The notes under the pieces are model-generated. The model was not told the DNA's origin. It ran no database searches and worked only from the letters and a program-made list of their open reading frames with translations. 14,225 nt of DNA, taken from a virus (lineage: Duplodnaviria; Heunggongvirae; Uroviricota; Caudoviricetes). Both the position numbers and the translations under genes were made by a program. The stretch lies in IMG/VR virus record IMGVR_UViG_2778261499_000007; one strand, 5' to 3'. Below, in pieces: positions 1,437-14,225 of this stretch. Within the stretch, counting starts at the first letter, position 1, and every line of letters begins with the position of its first letter.

Positions 1437-1476
1437 GAGTCCTTCCAGGACCTTAGCTAAAGCTAAGCCCTTTGGG
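1437..1476. repeat. Left arm of a 40-bp inverted repeat (partner 4297-4336); itself contains the palindrome CTTAGCT..AGCTAAG
   Basis: The reverse complement of 1437-1476 matches 4297-4336 at about 36 of 40 positions by eye. Confidence 0.7.
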
Positions 1477-3428: not shown

Positions 3429-3775
3429 TTTACTCACATTGTCAACACCTTGATTATATAAATTCTAATAATTAGCGTAGTAACGGTATTTTCAGACCTC
3501 TATCAATCCCATCAATACGTCACCCCCACCCTTTAGATGCATACATCCGACCTACTTTGTAGGCTTGGCGTACTGCCAAGGTCGCAGCTATGCGACTCCT
3601 ATCTATCACCACTTTATAAAGCTTGATAGATATCTTTTGATCAATATCAATGTTTTCCGGGTATTTACCCGGCTATAGTTCGAATCAAGGAAGGGGAGCA
3701 TTGATAGAGACACCCAAAGGGGTGACTGAAAGTCACCTGGCATAGCCAGTGAAAGCACCCAACCGAACAAACAAA

Positions 3776-3790: not shown

Positions 3791-3801
3791 AGGTGATAGT
3801 T

Positions 3802-3924
3802 ATGGGTATCAAGAACAGTGCCAGCGCATGGCAAAAGGCCAGGTTTCATCACCCACACATTGTTAAGGCAATTGAGGTGGTTGGAGTTTTAGCCCTGATG
3901 TTAGCTCTGTGTGTGGAGGTGTGA
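3802..3924 (+). CDS. Small peptide, 40 aa, with hydrophobic C-terminal segment (MGIKNSASAWQKARFHHPHIVKAIEVVGVLALMLALCVEV)
   Basis: Below the ORF-track size cutoff; translated by hand. AGGTGA RBS with 5-nt spacing; predicted C-terminal transmembrane segment. Confidence 0.3.
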   Translation: MGIKNSASAWQKARFHHPHIVKAIEVVGVLALMLALCVEV

Positions 3925-3925
3925 G

Positions 3926-4006
3926 ATGGGCAAAGGAGGCAAAGCATTTTTAATAGGTCTGGCTATCCTGGATGTTCTACTAATCATGATTAAGCGGAGT
4001 TTATGA
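3926..4006 (+). CDS. Small hydrophobic peptide, 26 aa (MGKGGKAFLIGLAILDVLLIMIKRSL)
   Basis: Translated by hand. GGAGG at 3915-3919 with 6-nt spacing; ATG begins 1 nt after the preceding TGA; single predicted transmembrane helix. Confidence 0.25.
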   Translation: MGKGGKAFLIGLAILDVLLIMIKRSL

Positions 4007-4025
4007 ACAGCATTGAGAGGAGTTT

Positions 4026-4286
4026 ATGACGGGGGCTAAAGATATCAGGAGACTGAGGGAAGAGCTGATAGCTGAAATTAAAGCTAAGGCAAAGCAAATG
4101 GAGATAGCCGCACAAATGGATGTAGCGGAACAGATGTACAAGATGGTTGAGGAGGGAACGCCACGACAGGTTATCGCTAAAACCTTCGGTGTGGGGATCG
4201 CCACCGTGCACAGAAGGCTGAAAGCCTATGCCGACTACCACAATATCGAGAGAAAGGAGGATGGGAGATTTAAGAAGAATAAATAG
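4026..4286 (+). CDS. Small HTH DNA-binding protein (coiled-coil N-terminus, C-terminal HTH GTPRQVIAKTFGVGIATVHRRLK), 86 aa
   Basis: ORF track; GAGGAG RBS; clear helix-turn-helix pattern; the overlapping minus-strand ORFs are low-complexity shadows. Confidence 0.55.
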   Translation: MTGAKDIRRLREELIAEIKAKAKQMEIAAQMDVAEQMYKMVEEGTPRQVIAKTFGVGIATVHRRLKAYADYHNIERKEDGRFKKNK

Positions 4287-4296
4287 TAGGAACAGG

Positions 4297-4336
4297 CCCG
4301 AAGGGCTTAGCTTTAGCTAAGGTCCTATCAGGACTC
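4297..4336. repeat. Right arm of the 40-bp inverted repeat (partner 1437-1476); hairpin-forming
   Basis: CCCGAAGGGCTTAGCTTTAGCTAAGGTCCT... is the reverse complement of 1437-1476 with about 4 mismatches; lies between the HTH gene stop and the next gene. Confidence 0.7.
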
Positions 4337-4366
4337 CCACACAGTCCAACAGGTTATTAACTAAAT

Positions 4367-4381
4367 TCAACTTCTCGCAAA
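4367..4381 (+). promoter_or_regulatory. Conserved 15-nt motif TCAACTTCTCGCAAA, copy 2, immediately upstream of the RBS of the 4393 gene
   Basis: Exact repeat of 3776-3790, at the same spacing to SD and ATG. Confidence 0.5.
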
Positions 4382-4392
4382 GGGGTACCACT

Positions 4393-5103
4393 ATGTTTAA
4401 AGGTCTTGTTGTTACGCTATTGGCTTGCATTGTATTTGGTCCATGGGTGTTAGTAATTGCTTTACCTATATTGCTGATCATGAGCTTAGGGAATGATATT
4501 AAAAAGCTGCATGCACAATATAAGGAGCATCCTGGAGCAGTCATAACAAGTCTGGTTATAGTCGCGGGGCTTATTGGCTGGGTCTACTTCTCTCTTCCCA
4601 CAGGAAATACAACTGCAAATGTAGAAGAGGCGAACGCACAGCATGAAGAAGTGGTTAACGTCGCCGACCTTACATGGGAGGACAGGGTAAAAGCATATAA
4701 ATATATTTATGGTGTGCTAGATTGCGATCTCTCTAAAGATATAGGATGCACAGATAAATACCAGATTCACGCCTGGCTGTGGAATCATGCAGAAAAAGGT
4801 GCTTGCAACCAGATTAAAGTGGCGGTTAACAGTGGGGCACCTACTGGGAAAAATAAAGATGTTCTGACGGTATGGTGCAAGGATGTAAAAGGCAATGATC
4901 GTTGGCTACAGATGCGCCACATGGACGGTGTAAGCATAGAAACTACACGAACGGCTCGATGGTATAACGGTGAACTCGTTCACGAAGCATGGCAGAATAA
5001 CGCCTGGATCACTGAGGGAACACTCCTGAATGTTGATATGGAAGCATTGAAGATGCTTAATGAGATGTACGGTGAAGCCGTAGAAACCTCTCCGATGAAA
5101 TAA
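4393..5103 (+). CDS. Membrane protein, 236 aa: N-terminal transmembrane helices and a Cys-containing C-terminal domain; function unknown
   Basis: ORF track; two long hydrophobic segments in the first 70 aa; several Cys in the C-terminal domain; followed by a strong terminator. Confidence 0.55.
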   Translation: MFKGLVVTLLACIVFGPWVLVIALPILLIMSLGNDIKKLHAQYKEHPGAVITSLVIVAGLIGWVYFSLPTGNTTANVEEANAQHEEVVNVADLTWEDRVKAYKYIYGVLDCDLSKDIGCTDKYQIHAWLWNHAEKGACNQIKVAVNSGAPTGKNKDVLTVWCKDVKGNDRWLQMRHMDGVSIETTRTARWYNGELVHEAWQNNAWITEGTLLNVDMEALKMLNEMYGEAVETSPMK

Positions 5104-5113
5104 CCACACCTAC

Positions 5114-5143
5114 CAGGGGCCATCACGGCCCCTTTTTATTTAT
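5114..5143 (+). terminator. Rho-independent terminator (AGGGGCC-atcac-GGCCCCT followed by TTTTATTTAT)
   Basis: Perfect 7-bp GC-rich stem, 5-nt loop and T-rich tail starting 11 nt after the stop of the 4393..5103 gene. Confidence 0.7.
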
Positions 5144-5200
5144 CCCCTATTTACACTCCTTTCAGTCCTGATCATCACTCCCTACCCCCTGATCAATTAA

Positions 5201-5250
5201 CCCCTATTTAAGGGGTATTTAATGGGTATTTAATGCCTATTTATTGATTT
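5201..5250. repeat. Phased tandem repeats of TATTTAA at about 11-bp period (4 to 5 copies), plus a second CCCCTATTTA copy at 5144-5153
   Basis: cccctatttaa / ggggtatttaat / gggtatttaat / gcctatttatt / gatttaat; periodicity of about one helical turn. Confidence 0.6.
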
Positions 5251-6486
5251 AATCCGTTTTATGCCACAACCGCCCGGTTGACAGAGTAAGAGAGAGGGTG
5301 TAACCCTTTTTCGTAATACTAATAAAATCAATAGCTTAGCTCAATTGGCCTTTTCTCTGTTTTTGTCAAATTTAACATACCCTAAAAAACTGCAAAATCT
5401 GGCTGCAAGATTATCTGCAGCTGGATTTCTTACACCTCAATTTGTGGTATCACCCTGACTAGTTTGTGCATAAAATGAACAGTTTTTAACATTTCCTCTT
5501 CACCTGGTAACCACACAAAAAGCTAAAAACGAGGCACAGATAATCTTAGAGGCCTGTTTTCTTGTTATCACTCTGGAAACGTCGTAGAAGTGATTTTGAT
5601 GAAAGATGACCTACCCTATTACACCCCCATTTTTTGTTATCACAATTGCATCCTGTGCGGTGTATGGCTGTGTGCTGAAAGCGGTCTTGGGTGTGGGTGT
5701 CAGAAATATCCATTAGCGGTATTAATACCCGTCAGATGTTCGTCTGAGGTGCCAGGCAGGCGCTCCCCCACCTCCCTTTTTTCTTCTAACAATTCTCAAA
5801 TATCACACCACTGCCGACCACGTTACTACTCTGTTAATTCTTAAGCTTTGCTGTATGTTGTGCACATTATTTATTCAGGTGCGTGTACGTAAATTCTGGG
5901 CCTCCTTATCATGATTTTTAAATCAGATTTTGTAGTTCGGTTTCTTAGTGTAGATAAGATCTATTATGTTAAATGCAATTTTCCCAACCCTTCAAATCAA
6001 TGACTTACATGTAAGCATGCACTAACACCCCACACAGCACATTAGACGTATAGATGGCTATATCCCACATTTTTGATTGTTTTGTAGTCATTCCCCTGAT
6101 CATTTAACCAGTATAGTTTGTTCTTTGCAGACCACAAAATCGGAATTTACATCTGATTAACATAATCTGTTAGCATGATCACTATTACCCACACAACAAT
6201 AACCCCATGCAAGACTCTTCAGGCAATTTATCGGCGTGTTGGTGTGAACAGTCTTTCATGTTCTTTATGTTTTCATTGTCCTGTGTGAGGGAAGGATGGA
6301 CTGCCCCAGGGGCCACACTTATGATGCCCGGTCAACATAGCTATTGATAAAATCAACGGGTGTTGATCTGCATATTTCCCACACATGAGAGGAAATCAGA
6401 GCAAAGAGAGAGGAGAGAGGTTTGCTAGTCAAAATAGGTCAATTGACGGCTAATACAGAGTAAAAAATCAGATGCAATCACTCCCC

Positions 6487-6669
6487 ACCTGTTGGGATTT
6501 CCCGCACCTGTATAAGAATACAGTCATACTTTCCCGTTATACGGTCATACACATGATGGAATAACCTGTTGGAATTTCCTACAGGTTTAACCATACACAG
6601 GAGCTAACCTGTTGGAATTTCCTACTACTACCTGTCGGTATTTCCCACAGGTACCTGTTGGAATTTCCC
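6487..6669. repeat. Iteron array (5 copies of ACCTGTTGGAATTTCCY at 6487, 6564, 6607, 6630, 6653), candidate replication origin
   Basis: Near-identical 17-mers; the last three are spaced 23 bp apart; ACCTGT/ACAGGT inverted half-sites; followed by an AT-rich tract (6670-6710) and, 1.3 kb downstream, Rep-like genes. Confidence 0.7.
6508..6523. promoter_or_regulatory. Canonical SOS-box pattern CTGT-N8-ACAG (CTGTATAAGAATACAG) inside the iteron region
   Basis: Exact CTGT and ACAG half-sites with an 8-nt A/T-rich spacer. May partly reflect the iteron ACCTGT/ACAGGT half-sites. Confidence 0.35.
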
Positions 6670-6797
6670 ACACTAATAGATAAAGAGAATAGATCAATAA
6701 AAAGAACTCCCCCTATAATCCCCCAACAAGGGGGGATGGGGAGGGATCAGAGAGTGGGGAAGGTTTTCTAAGGGAAAAGCTTAACCCACAAATGAAA

Positions 6798-6826
6798 GCC
6801 TAAAGAGCATTAGCGACTCTTTAGGC
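6798..6826. other. Perfect 10-bp stem hairpin (GCCTAAAGAG-N9-CTCTTTAGGC), part of a highly structured ORF-free stretch (about 6790-7100)
   Basis: Exact inverted repeat. Nearby are GGTGAC-N21-GTCACC (6840-6872), TTAAGCC-tct-GGCTTAA, GTCCGGA-N20-TCCGGAC and tandem 17-mers at 6826-6843 and 6873-6889. Confidence 0.5.
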
Positions 6827-7231
6827 AATCTGTGTGTGGGGTGACAATGTATTCCATACATGACACGTCACCCAATTGTGTGTGGGGTGCTTACAGCACT
6901 TAAGCCTCTGGCTTAACCCTTCGGGCCTCTGTGTGGGAAGCGTAGTGCGATAGCACGTAGCTTTATAATGTGGAGTCCGGATAAGAGACTTCTGTTTCCA
7001 ATCCGGACCGTTTAAGCGAGGGATTCCGCTCGCCCGTGTATGCACACACGTAATAGGACGCTCAGAAATCGATTTTAAGGCCCAAAACGGGGCCTACAGC
7101 AACCTAAACCATACTCCATAGTGCAATTGCATTGCCTGATGCTTAAATCGCGTTGTAGGGCATCTCATGAGGTTTGAGTTTAACACCCTCCAAAGTTTTA
7201 ACAAAAAGTGCTCTCCCTCCATTGTGGGCCA

Positions 7232-7261
7232 TTGACAATCTTATTGCATAAATGCTATAAG
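7232..7261 (+). promoter_or_regulatory. Sigma70-like promoter (TTGACA-N18-TATAAG)
   Basis: Consensus -35 hexamer with a 5-of-6 match -10 at 18-nt spacing. One of five (A/T)TTGACAAT-type repeats in 7230-7560. Confidence 0.4.
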
Positions 7262-7551
7262 TGATTCTGGTTTTGACACGGTAGGGGCCATTAATAATGT
7301 TTACCCCTTTGCTGTGGACTTGCTTGCACCTATAGCACACCTAAATGATAATAATTCTCATTGACAATTGGTTGACAATATGATAAGATTATAAATAGGG
7401 GGAGAAACAGATCCGGAGGTCAATGTGGAAATTACTGATGCAATAGCGATCATCAACCTGGCTGTACTGTGGTGCGGTGTTGCCTACATAGCCGGAGTAA
7501 CTGCAATCGACAATCTCGAAGAAAAAATGATAGATAAATACAAAAAGATTG

Positions 7552-7580
7552 TTGACAATTTGACGAATGTCTGATAAAAT
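7552..7580 (+). promoter_or_regulatory. Sigma70-like promoter (TTGACA-N17-TAAAAT) about 125 nt upstream of the 7706 gene
   Basis: Consensus -35 and near-consensus -10 at optimal spacing, oriented toward the replication gene block. Confidence 0.45.
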
Positions 7581-7705
7581 ATAAAGCATAGGGTAATTCT
7601 CATCATAGTGAATTTCCTTAAACAAAAATGCGGGGGCTTGTCTTAAGTTCCCGTTTCTTTTTAACCGTATATCGCACAGGCGGTGAGCTGACAGGAGATT
7701 GAATC

Positions 7706-7915
7706 ATGGCTAAAACCGGACCGATAAGCCAGCTGGTAAACTGGACTACTGACGAAATCGTCGAGAACGTGCTTAAAGGTAACTTTCGAAAAACTTCCGT
7801 TTATGCATTTATTCGTAAACACAAAGGGGAATACCCACATATTGAAGCGGCAATAGAAAAACTTAACTTTATCCGCATTGAGCGTGAGCTGGAAAGATAT
7901 AAACATCTACTTTGA
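7706..7915 (+). CDS. Small hypothetical protein, 69 aa (possible regulator)
   Basis: ORF track; AGGAGA RBS with 7-nt spacing; first gene of the plus-strand block that continues into the Rep-like genes. Confidence 0.45.
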   Translation: MAKTGPISQLVNWTTDEIVENVLKGNFRKTSVYAFIRKHKGEYPHIEAAIEKLNFIRIERELERYKHLL

Positions 7916-7939
7916 TAAATAATCTTGGAGGATCATATT

Positions 7940-8326
7940 ATGGCAAATAACGATGAAAATTTTACTCCCTTTTTTAAACGTTTCATCAAATACACTTTTA
8001 AAAATCCGATTGCAAAAACTGCAACCAATAAAGAAAGATTTCACTTAAATGTGTTGGAGGTAACAATTTATGGTGAAATGGTAAGTTATTCTTTTAAGGA
8101 GGGTGAAGAAATAATTATCTCAGAGCTCTCGACGCAGACATTAGCAGACGATTATGATGTTACAGAGAAAACAGTAAGGTCGGCTATCAAAACATTAGAG
8201 GCTGCAGGTCTGATAAACGTTAAACGAGAACAGGGCAAATCGAATATCTACGAATTGCTAATTACCCCTGATCAGCTTGGCAAGATGTGCGATGAGCAGG
8301 GTATTAGAGAATATTTTATATATTAA
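7940..8326 (+). CDS. Rep-like winged-helix protein, short paralog (about 128 aa); replication-initiator-type HTH
   Basis: Segment ISELSTQTLADDYDVTEKTVRSAIKTLEAAGLINVKREQGKSNIYELL fits the winged-helix pattern of phage/plasmid replication initiators. GGAGG RBS before the ATG at 7940 (track start 7925 is a TTG). Paralogous to the next gene. Confidence 0.5.
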   Translation: MANNDENFTPFFKRFIKYTFKNPIAKTATNKERFHLNVLEVTIYGEMVSYSFKEGEEIIISELSTQTLADDYDVTEKTVRSAIKTLEAAGLINVKREQGKSNIYELLITPDQLGKMCDEQGIREYFIY

Positions 8327-8337
8327 TGGGGGGAACT

Positions 8338-9258
8338 ATGGCAGGAAATAAACTGGGGGCACCTTTTACCCCCTCTTTCGATTTCTTTATTCAGTATGAT
8401 TTTGATAAACCAGTAGCAACAACAATTTCTAATAAAAAGACTGGAACAGTTAAAGAGCGCTTCTATTTAACAGACTTTGAAATGTTGATTTATGGAAAAA
8501 TGGTGGGATTTCATTTTAACGGTGAGGGAATTTATATTTCAGAGCAAAAACTGGCAACTCAACTCAGAAAGGATCGCGGGAAAATAGTAAGCGCTATTAA
8601 ATCTCTGGAAAATGCCGGGCTTATTTCTAAAGATAGCCGGAAAGGCATGTCTAATAATTACAAATTGCTGAAAACCCCTGATCAATTGTTGGATATGTGC
8701 ATTGAGAAGGGCGTAAATATTCCAGAAGGCATCTTAGAGACTTTCGGAAAGACTGCCGCTAAAGTAGAACAGCCTCAGGAAGCCCCAAAACAAGCCACAC
8801 AGCAAGCTAAAAAGGCTAAAGTAGTGCAATTGCCTACCCAAGACACTAAAGCGCCTCAAATTAACGCTGTTAGTGACAAGCCACGCCGGGGCCGTCCTGT
8901 GAAAGATGTCACCGATGGAGGCTGGATCGTCCTGGGTGAGAGTGAGGCTAAAGGCATAATGCGATCACTGTGGGAAAGCAAATACAAAGATTTAAACAAA
9001 CGTCGCCCGATCCTTTTGTCAAAGATTCAGGAGGATTTTTACACCGCAGAAGAGGTAAGCCAACATAAAGGGAAAAGAGAGGGTGAAATCTGGAAACCGG
9101 AAGAATACTGGCATTTAACCAGACCTGTGTTTATTTTTGCAAATAAGCTTATTGGGATGGGATTTGAAATATTGTTGGATAAAACCTGCGGAGATTATCC
9201 CGAAATATTGTGGAGAAATGTTAGAAAAAATAAAAAAGGCATTTTAGAGTTTAAATAA
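8338..9258 (+). CDS. Rep-like replication initiator, long paralog (about 306 aa) with a C-terminal extension
   Basis: N-terminal 120 aa parallels the preceding gene (MA.N...FTP.F...; ...SAIKSLENAGLISKDSRKGMSNNYKLL). The previous stop overlaps an upstream ATG at 8326 (TAATG); 8338 is preceded by a G-rich SD. Iterons lie upstream. Confidence 0.5.
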   Translation: MAGNKLGAPFTPSFDFFIQYDFDKPVATTISNKKTGTVKERFYLTDFEMLIYGKMVGFHFNGEGIYISEQKLATQLRKDRGKIVSAIKSLENAGLISKDSRKGMSNNYKLLKTPDQLLDMCIEKGVNIPEGILETFGKTAAKVEQPQEAPKQATQQAKKAKVVQLPTQDTKAPQINAVSDKPRRGRPVKDVTDGGWIVLGESEAKGIMRSLWESKYKDLNKRRPILLSKIQEDFYTAEEVSQHKGKREGEIWKPEEYWHLTRPVFIFANKLIGMGFEILLDKTCGDYPEILWRNVRKNKKGILEFK

Positions 9259-9275
9259 AAACACTGATAATCTTA

Positions 9276-9289
9276 TTTTTTTTTTTTTT
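9276..9289. repeat. Homopolymeric T tract (14 T)
   Basis: Seen directly in the sequence between the Rep gene stop and the 9307 ORF. Confidence 0.8.
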
Positions 9290-9306
9290 GTTTAAGGAAA
9301 TTTAAA

Positions 9307-9453
9307 ATGTATGGCGATTTTGATTATTACCTGGAAAAGGAAAAATATTTTGAAGATGAACTATCACAACATTTTTCATATTGGGAAGAATATTGTGGTT
9401 GGTTAGCTGAAGATCCAGCAGATGAAGAAAATGATTCTGACATCCCTTATTAA
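9307..9453 (+). CDS. Small, strongly acidic, aromatic-rich protein, 48 aa (MYGDFDYYLEKEKYFEDELSQHFSYWEEYCGWLAEDPADEENDSDIPY)
   Basis: Below the ORF-track cutoff; translated by hand. AAGGAAA RBS about 7 nt upstream; composition dominated by Asp/Glu/Tyr/Trp. Confidence 0.35.
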   Translation: MYGDFDYYLEKEKYFEDELSQHFSYWEEYCGWLAEDPADEENDSDIPY

Positions 9454-9551: not shown

Positions 9552-10040
9552 ATGTTCAAATCTGATCTTTCTGATTCCCAATTTGAAAAACTGGTAGCAC
9601 TGCAGAAATATCTCCCCAGTGATGATCAACCAACACGACAGGCTAAACACTTATTAGTCGAGGGCTTTACCCCTGAATTCGTGGCGGAATATACAGGCGT
9701 TAAACTTGAGAAAGTCCAAAAACTATATAATGAGTCCTGGAATCCACGGTGTCGAGTTCCCCTCAGTGTCTACAACGAAATAGATAGAGATAGAAATGTC
9801 TTCGAAGATCGCCGCCGCAAATCTCTTTTAATGTGGAATTGTGGGATGAATATTGAAGAGATAGCAAAAGAATTAAAAGTAACCTGCTTTCATATCTGGG
9901 GCTTGTTGAGTGAAATCCTACCACGTAAGGAGCTTAATCAACGTTTGCCTAAGCCCGGTAGTCGTGCTTATCGCGAATTTATATTCATCTACCGCCGCCA
10001 TAGCAATAAAGTCCGGAAAGCAATGGCCCAGAAAGCCTAA
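9552..10040 (+). CDS. Hypothetical protein, 162 aa, with two HTH-like segments (possible DNA-binding or regulatory protein)
   Basis: ORF track; GGAGA RBS; basic C-terminus; HTH-like stretches FTPEFVAEYTGVKLEKVQKLY and MNIEEIAKELKVTCFHIWGLL. Confidence 0.45.
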   Translation: MFKSDLSDSQFEKLVALQKYLPSDDQPTRQAKHLLVEGFTPEFVAEYTGVKLEKVQKLYNESWNPRCRVPLSVYNEIDRDRNVFEDRRRKSLLMWNCGMNIEEIAKELKVTCFHIWGLLSEILPRKELNQRLPKPGSRAYREFIFIYRRHSNKVRKAMAQKA

Positions 10041-10113
10041 GTTTTATCTCTTCGATTTATTTATTTTCGACTCACTTTAACCCCTTCCGGGGCTCTAATT
10101 TAAGGAATTCCAA

Positions 10114-10557
10114 ATGTCTCAAATCGCTAAATTACTATCCCAGGTTATCAAAGCTTTCGACGCTGAAGATTCAAAAGTTCGCCAGGATCTTTTAGATGGC
10201 AAGTTTACCAACACCCTGGCATTTACCCGTGACAAAGAGCACTTCTTAAAACACAGACACCACGCTTTTGCTGAATGCAAGTCCGCTAATGGTGATGTTT
10301 TCTATGTCGATTTGGTGGTTATGGCATGTAGATTGTGGATGATTCAGGACCTTATGCGCCAACACGGTGATGATCCTCTTATCAGCATGTGGAACAGCGC
10401 CCAGGATGGCTTTGTGATTGCTGCCTTATCCAAATCAATGATTGAGGCAGAAGGGGCAAGCCTTCAGAACATGGCAGATCTCTTTGAAATAAGCGTAGGA
10501 ATGATGCAGACCATGCTCCAAGCTGTCAAACCTCTCAAACTGGTTAATCTTGATTAA
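10114..10557 (+). CDS. Hypothetical protein, 147 aa
   Basis: ORF track; AAGGAA RBS with 7-nt spacing; no recognisable motif. Confidence 0.45.
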   Translation: MSQIAKLLSQVIKAFDAEDSKVRQDLLDGKFTNTLAFTRDKEHFLKHRHHAFAECKSANGDVFYVDLVVMACRLWMIQDLMRQHGDDPLISMWNSAQDGFVIAALSKSMIEAEGASLQNMADLFEISVGMMQTMLQAVKPLKLVNLD

Positions 10558-13293: not shown

Positions 13294-13395
13294 TGTCCAC
13301 TCTGTGGATTTGAGTTCTACTCAAACCTGCATAGCAGGCACTGATATTGTGATCAAAATCAATAAGTTAGCCTGACCGGACAAACTCCAGGCAAG

Positions 13396-13845: not shown

Positions 13846-14225
13846 TCAGCCTCTACCTACATTTGACCAATACTTGATTGCACCGATCAAATCATCATAG
13901 TGGCGCATTGCATCATTGAAGCCTTTATAGCTTGCCCATTGTGGTGAAACCTTGTTATTGCTGAATTGCCCACTAATCAGGATAGTCTCCAAAATGTCGG
14001 CATATCGCTTACCAATACGCTTTCTGACGGCCTCAGAGCTCCCACCCTTTACGATTGCATTAATCAGGGCTTTTGTGTGTCTCAGGCTCTCATAGAGCAT
14101 TGCAGCGTGGGCAGATTCCATAAAGGAGCGCTTAGGCAGATCACCCCACCCCTCAGAGTGGATAGCTGCCAGTGTGGCGTAATTCAGGCCGCTATAGTGC
14201 TTTCCGTCATCCCAGCCAACCGCTA
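13846..14225 (-). CDS. Hypothetical protein, C-terminal part (...MESAHAAMLYESLRHTKALINAIVKGGSSEAVRKRIGKRYADILETILISGQFSNNKVSPQWASYKGFNDAMRHYDDLIGAIKYWSNVGRG); same gene as 1-156 if circular (about 152 aa total)
   Basis: The frame is open from the window end down to the TGA at 13846-13848; the upstream portion is supplied in frame by 156->1 through the 77-bp junction. Confidence 0.5.
   Translation of the reverse strand, partial: AVGWDDGKHYSGLNYATLAAIHSEGWGDLPKRSFMESAHAAMLYESLRHTKALINAIVKGGSSEAVRKRIGKRYADILETILISGQFSNNKVSPQWASYKGFNDAMRHYDDLIGAIKYWSNVGRG
14149..14225. repeat. Terminal direct repeat, right copy (identical to 1-77)
   Basis: Same 77-mer as the window start; consistent with a circular contig written with overlap, or a direct terminal repeat. 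Confidence 0.9.

Follow-up and report, generated by a model that had tools for sequence, protein, structure and literature searches.

A candidate iteron origin and initiator in a family of satellite-like plasmids, with a truncated initiator paralog of another predicted specificity

At the phage lambda origin, ori-lambda, four dyad iterons lie next to an AT-rich tract and are bound by O, an initiator built of a DNA-binding domain, a flexible linker, and a recruitment domain. The Rep_3 iteron plasmids (F RepE, P1 RepA, R6K pi, or pPS10 RepA) also have repeated Rep sites beside an AT-rich region, read by winged-helix domains, together with extra iterons outside the minimal origin and an iteron-based incompatibility. 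Replication proteins reduced to their DNA-binding domain are known as well, since papillomavirus E8^E2/E2-TR and the truncated geminivirus Rep block the sites of the full-length protein and replication. In the PLE satellites of Vibrio cholerae, RepA_N and the ori are swapped as modules, and the nuclease Odn of phage ICP1 mimics the RepA DNA-binding domain (PMC8263062). Here we analyze a stretch of 14,225 nucleotides (hereafter the window; IMG/VR record IMGVR_UViG_2778261499_000007, classified within Caudoviricetes), in which an iteron array is followed by two tandem paralogous genes, one short and one long. We consider it probable that positions 6487–6706 are a replication origin and that the long protein (long Rep) is its initiator. 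The whole reading, a satellite plasmid carrying this origin, its initiator, and a decoy paralog of a different binding type (type B), is favored on balance, with less confidence than its first part.

The first 77 bases of the window are repeated exactly at 14149–14225, and it is therefore a complete, circularly closed plasmid of 14,148 bp. Within it, ACCTGTYGGNATTTCCYRC is found five times (at 6487, 6564, 6607, 6630, and 6653, spanning 6487–6671), always on the plus strand, while only 0.01 copies are expected by chance and none of 200 shuffles reached five. A previous reading of the letters alone (the sequence-only reading) had described five 17-bp iterons with palindromic ACCTGT/ACAGGT half-sites. 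Their number stands, but the repeat unit is 19–23 bp, and only two copies (6564–6586 and 6630–6652) have the full 23-bp dyad ACCTGTnGGAATTTCCnACAGGT with both ACCTGT and ACAGGT, the other three having the left half along with the GGAATTTCC core. The sites are arranged as one plus four, with a variant site (ACCTGTTGGGATTTCCCGC) 77 bp upstream of a principal array of four type-A sites (6564–6586, 6607–6629, 6630–6652, and 6653–6675) that are spaced by 43, 23, and 23 bp and located directly before the AT-rich tract. These four are proposed as binding sites for dimers of the long Rep. An A-like site at the position equivalent to 6487 is present in most relatives regardless of the type of their main array. 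Scans for half-sites and cores gave copies in the window only within 6487–6671, plus one at 4344. The adjacent AT-rich tract of the sequence-only reading is real though short. Its 35 bp (CTAATAGATAAAG-AGAATAGAT..., with ATAGAT repeated) have 80% A+T against 56% for the whole element, which places it in the top 0.8% of 35-bp windows, and it is a candidate DNA-unwinding element.

The long Rep extends 178 residues beyond its short paralog, to which it is 48% identical over about 125 residues (E 2e-29), so that the shared winged-helix N-terminal domain and the C-terminal extension of about 180 aa described before are both borne out. It consists of a winged helix (about residues 11–135), a disordered linker rich in Q, P, and K (141–187, 47 residues), and a C-terminal domain (about 190–306) of the allele that we call C1. 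The same organization appears in an AlphaFold2 model (pLDDT 72), with the C-terminal domain as a compact helical unit of about 115 residues. Both proteins match winged-helix models of the helix-turn-helix (HTH) type, HTH_36 and others; for HTH_36 (PF13730) the short protein passes the Pfam threshold of 25 bits, with 27.1. The profile search that had been suggested as a check brought up replication-initiator families, as both proteins match PHROG families of replication initiators, O-like, and DnaD-like proteins with E values of 1e-7 to 1e-8 (phrog_391 for the short and phrog_678 for the long protein, E about 3e-7; phrog_270, E 1e-8), in all cases through the N-terminal domain alone. Of the 25 top PHROG families for the short protein, 20 belong to the DNA-replication category. 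NCBIfam and PDB sequence profile searches gave only weak HTH matches. A side feature of the C1 linker is an AT-hook-like KPRRGRPVK (residues 181–189, nt 8878–8904), replaced in alleles C2 and C3 by a basic RRERRRDAGKR stretch; this motif could touch the AT tract.

The locus resembles ori-lambda in having four dyad sites of about 19–23 bp beside an AT-rich tract, in an initiator with an N-terminal DNA-binding domain, a flexible linker, and a C-terminal domain for which a recruitment role is proposed here, in being independent of nearby DnaA boxes, and in the weak matches to O-like PHROG families (E 3e-7). It differs in that the origin is not inside the gene but 1.27 kb upstream of it (or directly downstream, in the sister family described below), in the lack of a P-like helicase-loader gene and of a Phage_rep_O match, in an orphan C-terminal domain, and in the many interchangeable specificity classes. 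With the Rep_3 plasmids it shares repeated Rep sites beside an AT-rich region, winged-helix reading of the DNA, extra iterons outside the minimal origin, and, as proposed here, an iteron-based incompatibility. However, it has one winged helix instead of two and no Rep_3 domain, each site is a dyad and probably the target of a dimer, where the Rep_3 plasmids have direct repeats for monomers, and there is neither a DnaA box nor an inverted half-iteron operator at the rep promoter.

The main argument for pairing the array with the long Rep comes from 30 related elements, registered on the box CTAATAGATAAA that opens the AT tract. All of them have four sites at fixed offsets of -107, -64, -41, and -18 from the box, as in the main array of the window, and the site sequences fall into discrete classes, each with its own recognition helix in the long Rep. 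Class A (ACCTGTTGGAATTTCC, the site of the window) goes with helix KDRGKIVSAIK in 8/8 elements, class C (CCCCGGAAGATTTCTCCGG) with VSDRKIRDSIK in 5/5, class D (ACCTGTAAAATATTTTAC) with (V/F)SRPT(V/I)I in 5/5, and class F (CTGAAGATTTCTCAC) with VSDRKIIESIK in 5/5. Class B (CCCCGGTAAATATTTCCGG) was found with ATEKTVRSAIK in four elements, and classes B' (GGTAAAAATTACCG, helix WTPKTVRTAIH) and H (ATATGCTGGnATTTCC, helix KIASAIK with a shortened wing) in one element each. Array class and helix class thus agree in 29 of the 30 elements, a count whose weight is reduced by the fact that the elements are related and do not represent independent trials. Around this pairing the DNA is mosaic. Class A is found with all three C-terminal alleles (C1, C2, and C3, with about 28% mutual identity), and in the approximately 0.5 kb between the box and the rep promoter identity reaches 99.1% for an A–D pair of elements and 98.5% for an A–C pair, against only 58–80% among the A elements compared. 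Recombination has therefore reshuffled the DNA around and between array and helix without ever parting them. As C-terminal alleles and intervening DNA reassort, linkage alone fails to explain the pairing.

The sole exception, L009 (NZ_CP020521), has a type-B array and a Rep with an unrelated, MarR-like N-terminus. It was discarded as a counter-example because three 29-bp repeats (TATCAACATATCAAT-n-TGATATACTTAAA) immediately follow its box, forming a private array that none of the other elements has. Its Rep combines the N-terminus of a 166-aa protein family (see below) with a tail lacking the usual C-terminal domain, and the full type-B array is kept without a cognate Rep. Single orphan sites of foreign classes (A-like, C, D, E, and G) are also present in many relatives (L002, L004–L009, L012, L014–L016, L020, and L022), 100–350 bp ahead of their own four-site array; in the window there is just one extra site, the A-like one at 6487. 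Such orphan sites may serve as decoys, titrating the initiators of rivals, or may be left over from a switch of origin.

A sister family of E. coli elements of about 19 kb (L035–L037), with a homologous Rep of about 45% identity, offers what we take as independent support for the array-initiator pairing, again at the level of sequence. Here the array (22-bp spacing) and the same box CTAATAGATTAAAGAATAGAT (the CTAATAGAT box) lie directly downstream of rep. The helix of the sister Rep, TEKTVRTAI, is paired with CCGGTAATTTTTACCG, a B/B'-like site, and this confirms the link of the type-B helix to CGGTAA-N5-TTACCG. The sister family also has genes for Dit-like, tape-measure, and short Phage_integrase-domain proteins and a Lambda_Kil homolog.

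Array-helix co-variation that survives recombination and the layout of the sister family are the reasons why we read 6487–6706 as the probable origin and the long protein as its initiator. No other replication gene was found on the circle, and none of the downstream proteins (48, 162, 147, 129, and 61 aa) matches a loader or helicase. On these grounds, together with the PHROG matches, the iteron origin and Rep-like initiator of the sequence-only reading are upheld. Dimers of the long Rep would bind the four (plus one) dyad-symmetric 23-bp sites through the N-terminal winged helix and bend or distort the DNA, opening the adjoining 35-bp AT-rich box. Recruitment of a helicase or replisome, of host or helper-phage origin, would then fall to the linker, with its AT-hook-like motif, and to the C-terminal domain. 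The C-terminal domain has no homologs outside these elements among 1.84 billion representative proteins, so helicase recruitment is proposed purely by analogy, and by the same kind of comparison theta-type replication is plausible. We infer that the long Rep is an unclassified initiator working like an O-type one. There was no match of the long Rep to NTPase or helicase families, which sets it apart from PICI/SaPI-type Reps, where the initiator is fused to a helicase and iterons flank an AT-rich region, and tblastn of the long Rep against phages gave nothing.

Several observations weigh against this assignment. By sequence comparison the long Rep belongs to no curated Rep family: neither protein matches Rep_3 (PF01051) at E <= 1 or Pfam Phage_rep_O, the HTH_36 score of the long protein (19.7 bits) is below the threshold, many of its homologs carrying a precomputed match, and a profile of the C-terminal domain run against 1.84 billion representatives recovered only this family and its sister. 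The iterons are about 1.3 kb away from rep. A scan for DnaA boxes (TTWTNCACA) placed the nearest at 5465, 3256, and 1479, none of them closer than 1 kb to the array. The repeats, the paralogy, the co-variation across the family, the purifying selection, and the phage captures are shown by the sequences, while DNA binding, firing of the origin, and inhibition are steps that we infer. Finally, positions 5223–6422 comprise 1.2 kb lacking annotated genes that are 95–99% identical across the aligned relatives, the most conserved part of the compared region and more conserved than neighboring coding DNA, with no match in phage DNA or Rfam. This stretch could be a regulatory or packaging region, an RNA, or an alternative, host-driven origin.

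The array might accordingly be a pac site, a centromere, or an operator, with the long protein as a small-terminase-like or partition adaptor whose variable C-terminal domain docks onto a partner from the helper phage, and replication starting elsewhere, for example in 5223–6422. A satellite-like element without terminase and portal genes would suit this explanation, as would a C-terminal domain that exists as three alleles about 28% identical and without homologs, the lack of DnaA boxes near the array, and the conserved non-coding stretch nearby, and searches with structures or PDB sequences cannot separate an initiator from any other winged-helix protein. However, 20 of the 25 top PHROG matches are replication initiators or helicase loaders and none is a terminase. 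There is no ParA, ParM, or TubZ partner gene, and four dyad sites adjoining an AT tract with repeated ATAGAT represent a classic origin layout. The element must also replicate as a plasmid, for which no other candidate gene exists, and an Rfam scan of the whole window gave two sub-threshold chance matches and no RNA-primed-origin family. We regard this explanation as quite improbable and retain the origin and its initiator.

The short paralog is a different matter. It has the winged-helix DNA-binding domain only and its own GGAGG ribosome-binding site. Its recognition helix TEKTVRSAIKTLEAAGLI (nt 8162–8215) is that of a type-B Rep and its wing that of the B' Rep, while the helix of the long Rep, KDRGKIVSAIKSLENAGLI, is of type A. 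No type-B site (CGGTAA-N5-TTACCG) was found in the window, even allowing two mismatches, and no half-site or core that could form an inverted half-iteron operator occurs near 7361–7580, at the rep promoter. Judged by its helix, the short protein is neither a second initiator of this origin nor its cognate autorepressor, both of which had been suggested by the sequence-only reading. As an autorepressor of the window iterons it was rejected for its type-B helix and for the missing half-iteron or core at the rep promoter.

The slot occupied by the short gene, between a 69/71-aa gene and the long rep, is filled in a minority of the relatives only, most of which have a single Rep, so the tandem short/long arrangement is not a fixed trait of the family. 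Among nine complete database plasmids only pE275a_13 has a slot gene, encoding a different protein of 121 aa. A slot gene was present in 2/10 contexts sampled through a 48-aa marker (the product of the gene following rep) and in three plasmid contigs among ten contexts sampled through the 69-aa gene. The 128-aa form recurs at 87–95% identity beside long Reps of type A, H, and C, and never B. These forms share a derived four-residue insert and a R(E/G)YFIY tail, both missing from the full-length Reps, and between them dS is 0.41–0.45 and dN/dS 0.16–0.18. Low dN/dS together with shared derived features indicates, from sequence comparison, that the protein is maintained by purifying selection as a truncated form, although gene conversion or recombination from functional full-length genes could contribute to its conservation, and this counts against the argument.

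The short gene might also be a functionless relic, the N-terminal half of an older type-B rep behind which a new rep cassette came in by recombination. In favor of this, both kinds of short open reading frame (ORF) end just past the MCDEQGI domain border, the DNA preceding the long gene looks like the usual ribosome-binding region of rep, mosaicism of rep genes is demonstrable, and the orphan iterons of the relatives look like leftovers. We find this very unlikely, given that three backgrounds have an open frame of exactly 128 codons at the divergence mentioned, that insert and tail are common to the short forms, and that clusters of at least 19 member sequences exist. Moreover, no type-B orphan sites are left in the carriers, and the same kind of truncation has been selected twice by phages (see below).

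In other elements this slot is filled by a second, unrelated family of proteins with only a DNA-binding domain (166–172 aa). These proteins are homologs of the L009 Rep N-terminus, and three of them share the L009 helix, in elements without L009-type repeats. Therefore, as far as helix comparison tells, the slot protein is heterospecific to the resident array in every case seen. That the specificity of the short protein is read off helix identity is a weakness of this argument. An autorepressor would be expected to be homospecific and a relic to decay, and for this reason our preferred reading, still a tentative one that falls a little short of even confidence, is that the short protein is a trans-acting blocker of rival type-B replicons of the same family. 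Made from one operon with the long Rep, it would carry the DNA-binding domain with type-B specificity alone and sit on rival type-B iterons without firing them, as a dominant-negative, incompatibility-like weapon. The competitor of the sequence-only reading comes closest to this evidence, although the rivalry would be with other replicons and not with the resident initiator. The papillomavirus and geminivirus forms, by comparison, derive from the same gene and act on their own or a homologous genome, while here the truncated form is a separate gene with a different predicted specificity.

The short protein might instead act in cis, as an autorepressor or anti-initiator that sets the copy number of its own plasmid, either by pairing with the long Rep in poison heterodimers, by way of the N-terminal fold that they have in common, or by binding an unrecognized operator. 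It is encoded in the same operon, with a TAATG overlap between its stop and an in-frame start of the long gene, is 48% identical in the presumed dimerizing domain, and is under purifying selection. Besides, variants defined by 12-mers beside the AT box (6684–6698 and 6707–6725) occur only in carriers of the 128-aa gene. On the other side, one Rep and no slot gene are enough for most relatives to replicate, the same short gene stands beside three different long Rep types, the rep promoter has no half-site of type A or B and no carrier-specific 12-mers, and the helix of the short protein belongs to another specificity class. We therefore consider a cis-acting regulator unlikely and keep the trans-acting blocker as the preferred, if tentative, role.

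This role gains plausibility because phages have captured the same kind of truncated Rep. Two contigs (L023 and L049), otherwise 96–99% identical to Vequintavirus genomes, carry plasmid DNA. In L023, an insert of 760 bp (9758–10517), 99.5% identical to plasmid L006, replaces 1.6 kb of phage DNA and contains the 71-aa gene and a type-D Rep of which 173 residues are left, up to a point in the linker. In L049, at another phage locus, an insert of 1,412 bp (3793–5203), about 96.5% identical to plasmids L001, L044, and L047, replaces about 7 kb. It contains the rep promoter, a 69-aa gene with a product identical to that of the window, the 121-aa short paralog, and a type-A Rep (198 aa) that is broken off behind residue 197, exactly at the start of the C-terminal domain. 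Both captures have removed the proposed recruitment domain and kept the DNA-binding domain, and no nuclease part is recognizable in the phage-borne truncated Reps. These are two independent acquisitions, with different Rep classes and at different sites. Assembly chimeras were considered and rejected, as the junctions, from our reading of the alignments, have microhomology of only about 5–12 bp, shorter than the k of 31 assumed for the Logan assemblies. No iteron-like site of any class was found in one complete Vequintavirus genome.

The parallel with PLE and ICP1 is close. Both systems have a satellite of a virulent myovirus (a probable one in our case) whose iterons are semi-palindromic, the origin changes together with the DNA-binding domain of the initiator and both have been swapped, and the helper phage has acquired the DNA-binding specificity of the satellite initiator (PMC8263062). 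On the other hand, ours is a plasmid and PLE a chromosomal island, the specificity classes number at least seven here against two, and, unlike Odn, the phage-borne copies are truncated Reps with no recognizable nuclease. As a further proposed difference, the satellites here have DNA-binding-domain-only copies of their own, directed against other satellites. It is conceivable, and we offer it as speculation, that plasmid-satellites of rV5-like phages are engaged in an arms race over origin specificity, in which phages stole truncated initiators at least twice to silence the satellites. With similar reserve, at least seven interchangeable iteron/helix pairs, genes for rival DNA-binding domains in two unrelated families, and orphan iterons might serve to shut down competitors. 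If true, nature would have evolved a system of incompatibility or exclusion that is based on proteins and can be programmed by sequence. If the origin reading is right, the initiator stands outside the curated families, in plasmids that occur in well over a thousand public assemblies. The system might also add a new conflict mechanism, complementing ICP1 Odn versus PLE RepA, the one well-studied case. A natural helix-to-site code with seven classes on one scaffold would be useful for the study and engineering of orthogonal origins, and origin-specificity arms races would become testable in E. coli by simple plasmid assays.

Regarding the element itself, complete circular E. coli plasmids of 13.2–13.7 kb match the window at 91–95% identity (megablast). 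PLSDB lists them as non-mobilizable, without replicon type, and "non-typeable" by MOB-suite. Their annotation includes major capsid, tape-measure, and baseplate (Dit-like) proteins. The Dit-like protein of the window is 50% identical (E 6e-61) to that of the Vequintavirus (rV5-like) SophiaRose, and its tape-measure and capsid proteins are 25 and 24% identical to the SophiaRose counterparts, while profile searches gave no terminase, portal, or integrase among the window ORFs. From this gene content, the most economical reading is that of a probable plasmid-borne satellite of Vequintavirinae. The exact 48-aa product encoded directly after rep is listed in 1,762 blocks of a public assembly collection, 1,421 of them with contigs of 10–20 kb, and the plasmid family is therefore common; no description of it was found in the literature searched. 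At the DNA level, megablast and blastn against phage genomes gave no match for the window, nor for 5150–7420, and neither an IMG/VR scan with the conserved 162-aa protein nor PADLOC (defense systems) on the window gave a hit. GC skew, which is confounded by gene orientation, was not used. One relative, L002 (NZ_CP043822), is a 39.6-kb head-to-tail trimer with copy-to-copy differences, and in L025–L027 copies are found in larger contigs beside Tn3-type or IS elements with beta-lactamase genes, or in an IncFII plasmid, which indicates that the element forms multimers and cointegrates.

The features of the candidate origin and rep region are collected in Table 1.

Table 1. Coordinates of the features between the iteron array and the gene following rep, in window positions.
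Feature	Position	Strand	Remarks
Upstream variant site ACCTGTTGGGATTTCCCGC	6487..6505	+	77 bp upstream of the main array
Principal array, four type-A sites	6564..6675	+	(partial) dyads ACCTGTnGGAATTTCCnACAGGT of about 23 bp; proposed long-Rep sites
AT-rich box CTAATAGATAAAG-AGAATAGAT...	6672..6706	.	80% A+T, ATAGAT repeated, conserved; proposed unwinding element
C-run/G-run hairpin TCCCCC..CCCCC-loop-GGGGGG..GGGGAGGG	6707..6743	.	embedded TATAAT; conserved in the family
Hairpin followed by T-run	6798..6826	-	10-bp stem; conserved, terminator-like, faces the origin
Triple-hairpin module, one copy	6887..6925	+	flanked by TGTGTGGG repeats at 6833, 6879, and 6930
Promoter-like site TTGACA-17-TAAGAT	7361..7389	+	with TG; upstream of the 49-codon ORF (7425-7574)
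Best promoter-like site TTGACA-17-TAAAAT	7552..7580	+	11/12, with TG; for the rep operon
Inverted repeat, 25 nt, 88% complementary	7604..7628 (left arm); 9285-9309 (right arm)	.	brackets the 69-aa/short/long rep cassette
69-aa gene	7706..7915	+	conserved; first gene of the rep operon
Short paralog, 128 aa	7940..8326	+	winged-helix domain only; own GGAGG ribosome-binding site
Long Rep, 306 aa	8338..9258	+	proposed initiator
48-aa acidic protein gene	9307..9453	+	directly after rep

The approximately 1.27 kb between array and rep contain hairpin modules, two sigma-70-like promoters, and ORFs of 49 and 69 codons. The exact variant of the C-run/G-run hairpin present in the window is common only to elements with the 128-aa gene. 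A leader hairpin with a T-run (7630–7654) follows the best promoter-like site, behind which the 69-aa, short, and long genes form one operon. At 8324–8340 the stop of the short gene overlaps, as TAATG, an in-frame ATG of the long gene at 8326, four codons upstream of the start used in single-Rep relatives, and translational coupling of the two genes through it is possible. The 25-nt inverted repeat encloses the cassette from the operon leader to just before the start of the 48-aa gene; it could pair within the mRNA or mark the borders of an exchangeable cassette.

The triple-hairpin module is not specific to the origin. Six copies are present in the window (1439–1476, 3551–3595, 3713–3749, 4297–4334, 6887–6925, and 13296–13338), all intergenic, against 0.03 expected in shuffles. 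Each is made of three abutting perfect hairpins, 37–50 nt in total and often flanked by TGTGTGGG...CTGTGTG. The sequence varies from copy to copy with all stems retained, the module is also found in the relatives and in the 19-kb sister family, and it has no Rfam entry. In the region equivalent to 6887–6925 the relatives have from zero to three units of TGTGTGGG plus triple hairpin. A 45-nt inverted repeat (1437–1481 and 4292–4336) corresponds to two of the copies in the window. Finally, positions 4026–5103 encode an 86-aa protein with only a resolvase-type HTH (HTH_7), followed by a protein without family match that is highly variable in length (173–236 aa) and sequence among relatives, and this segment may be a variable cargo or accessory slot.

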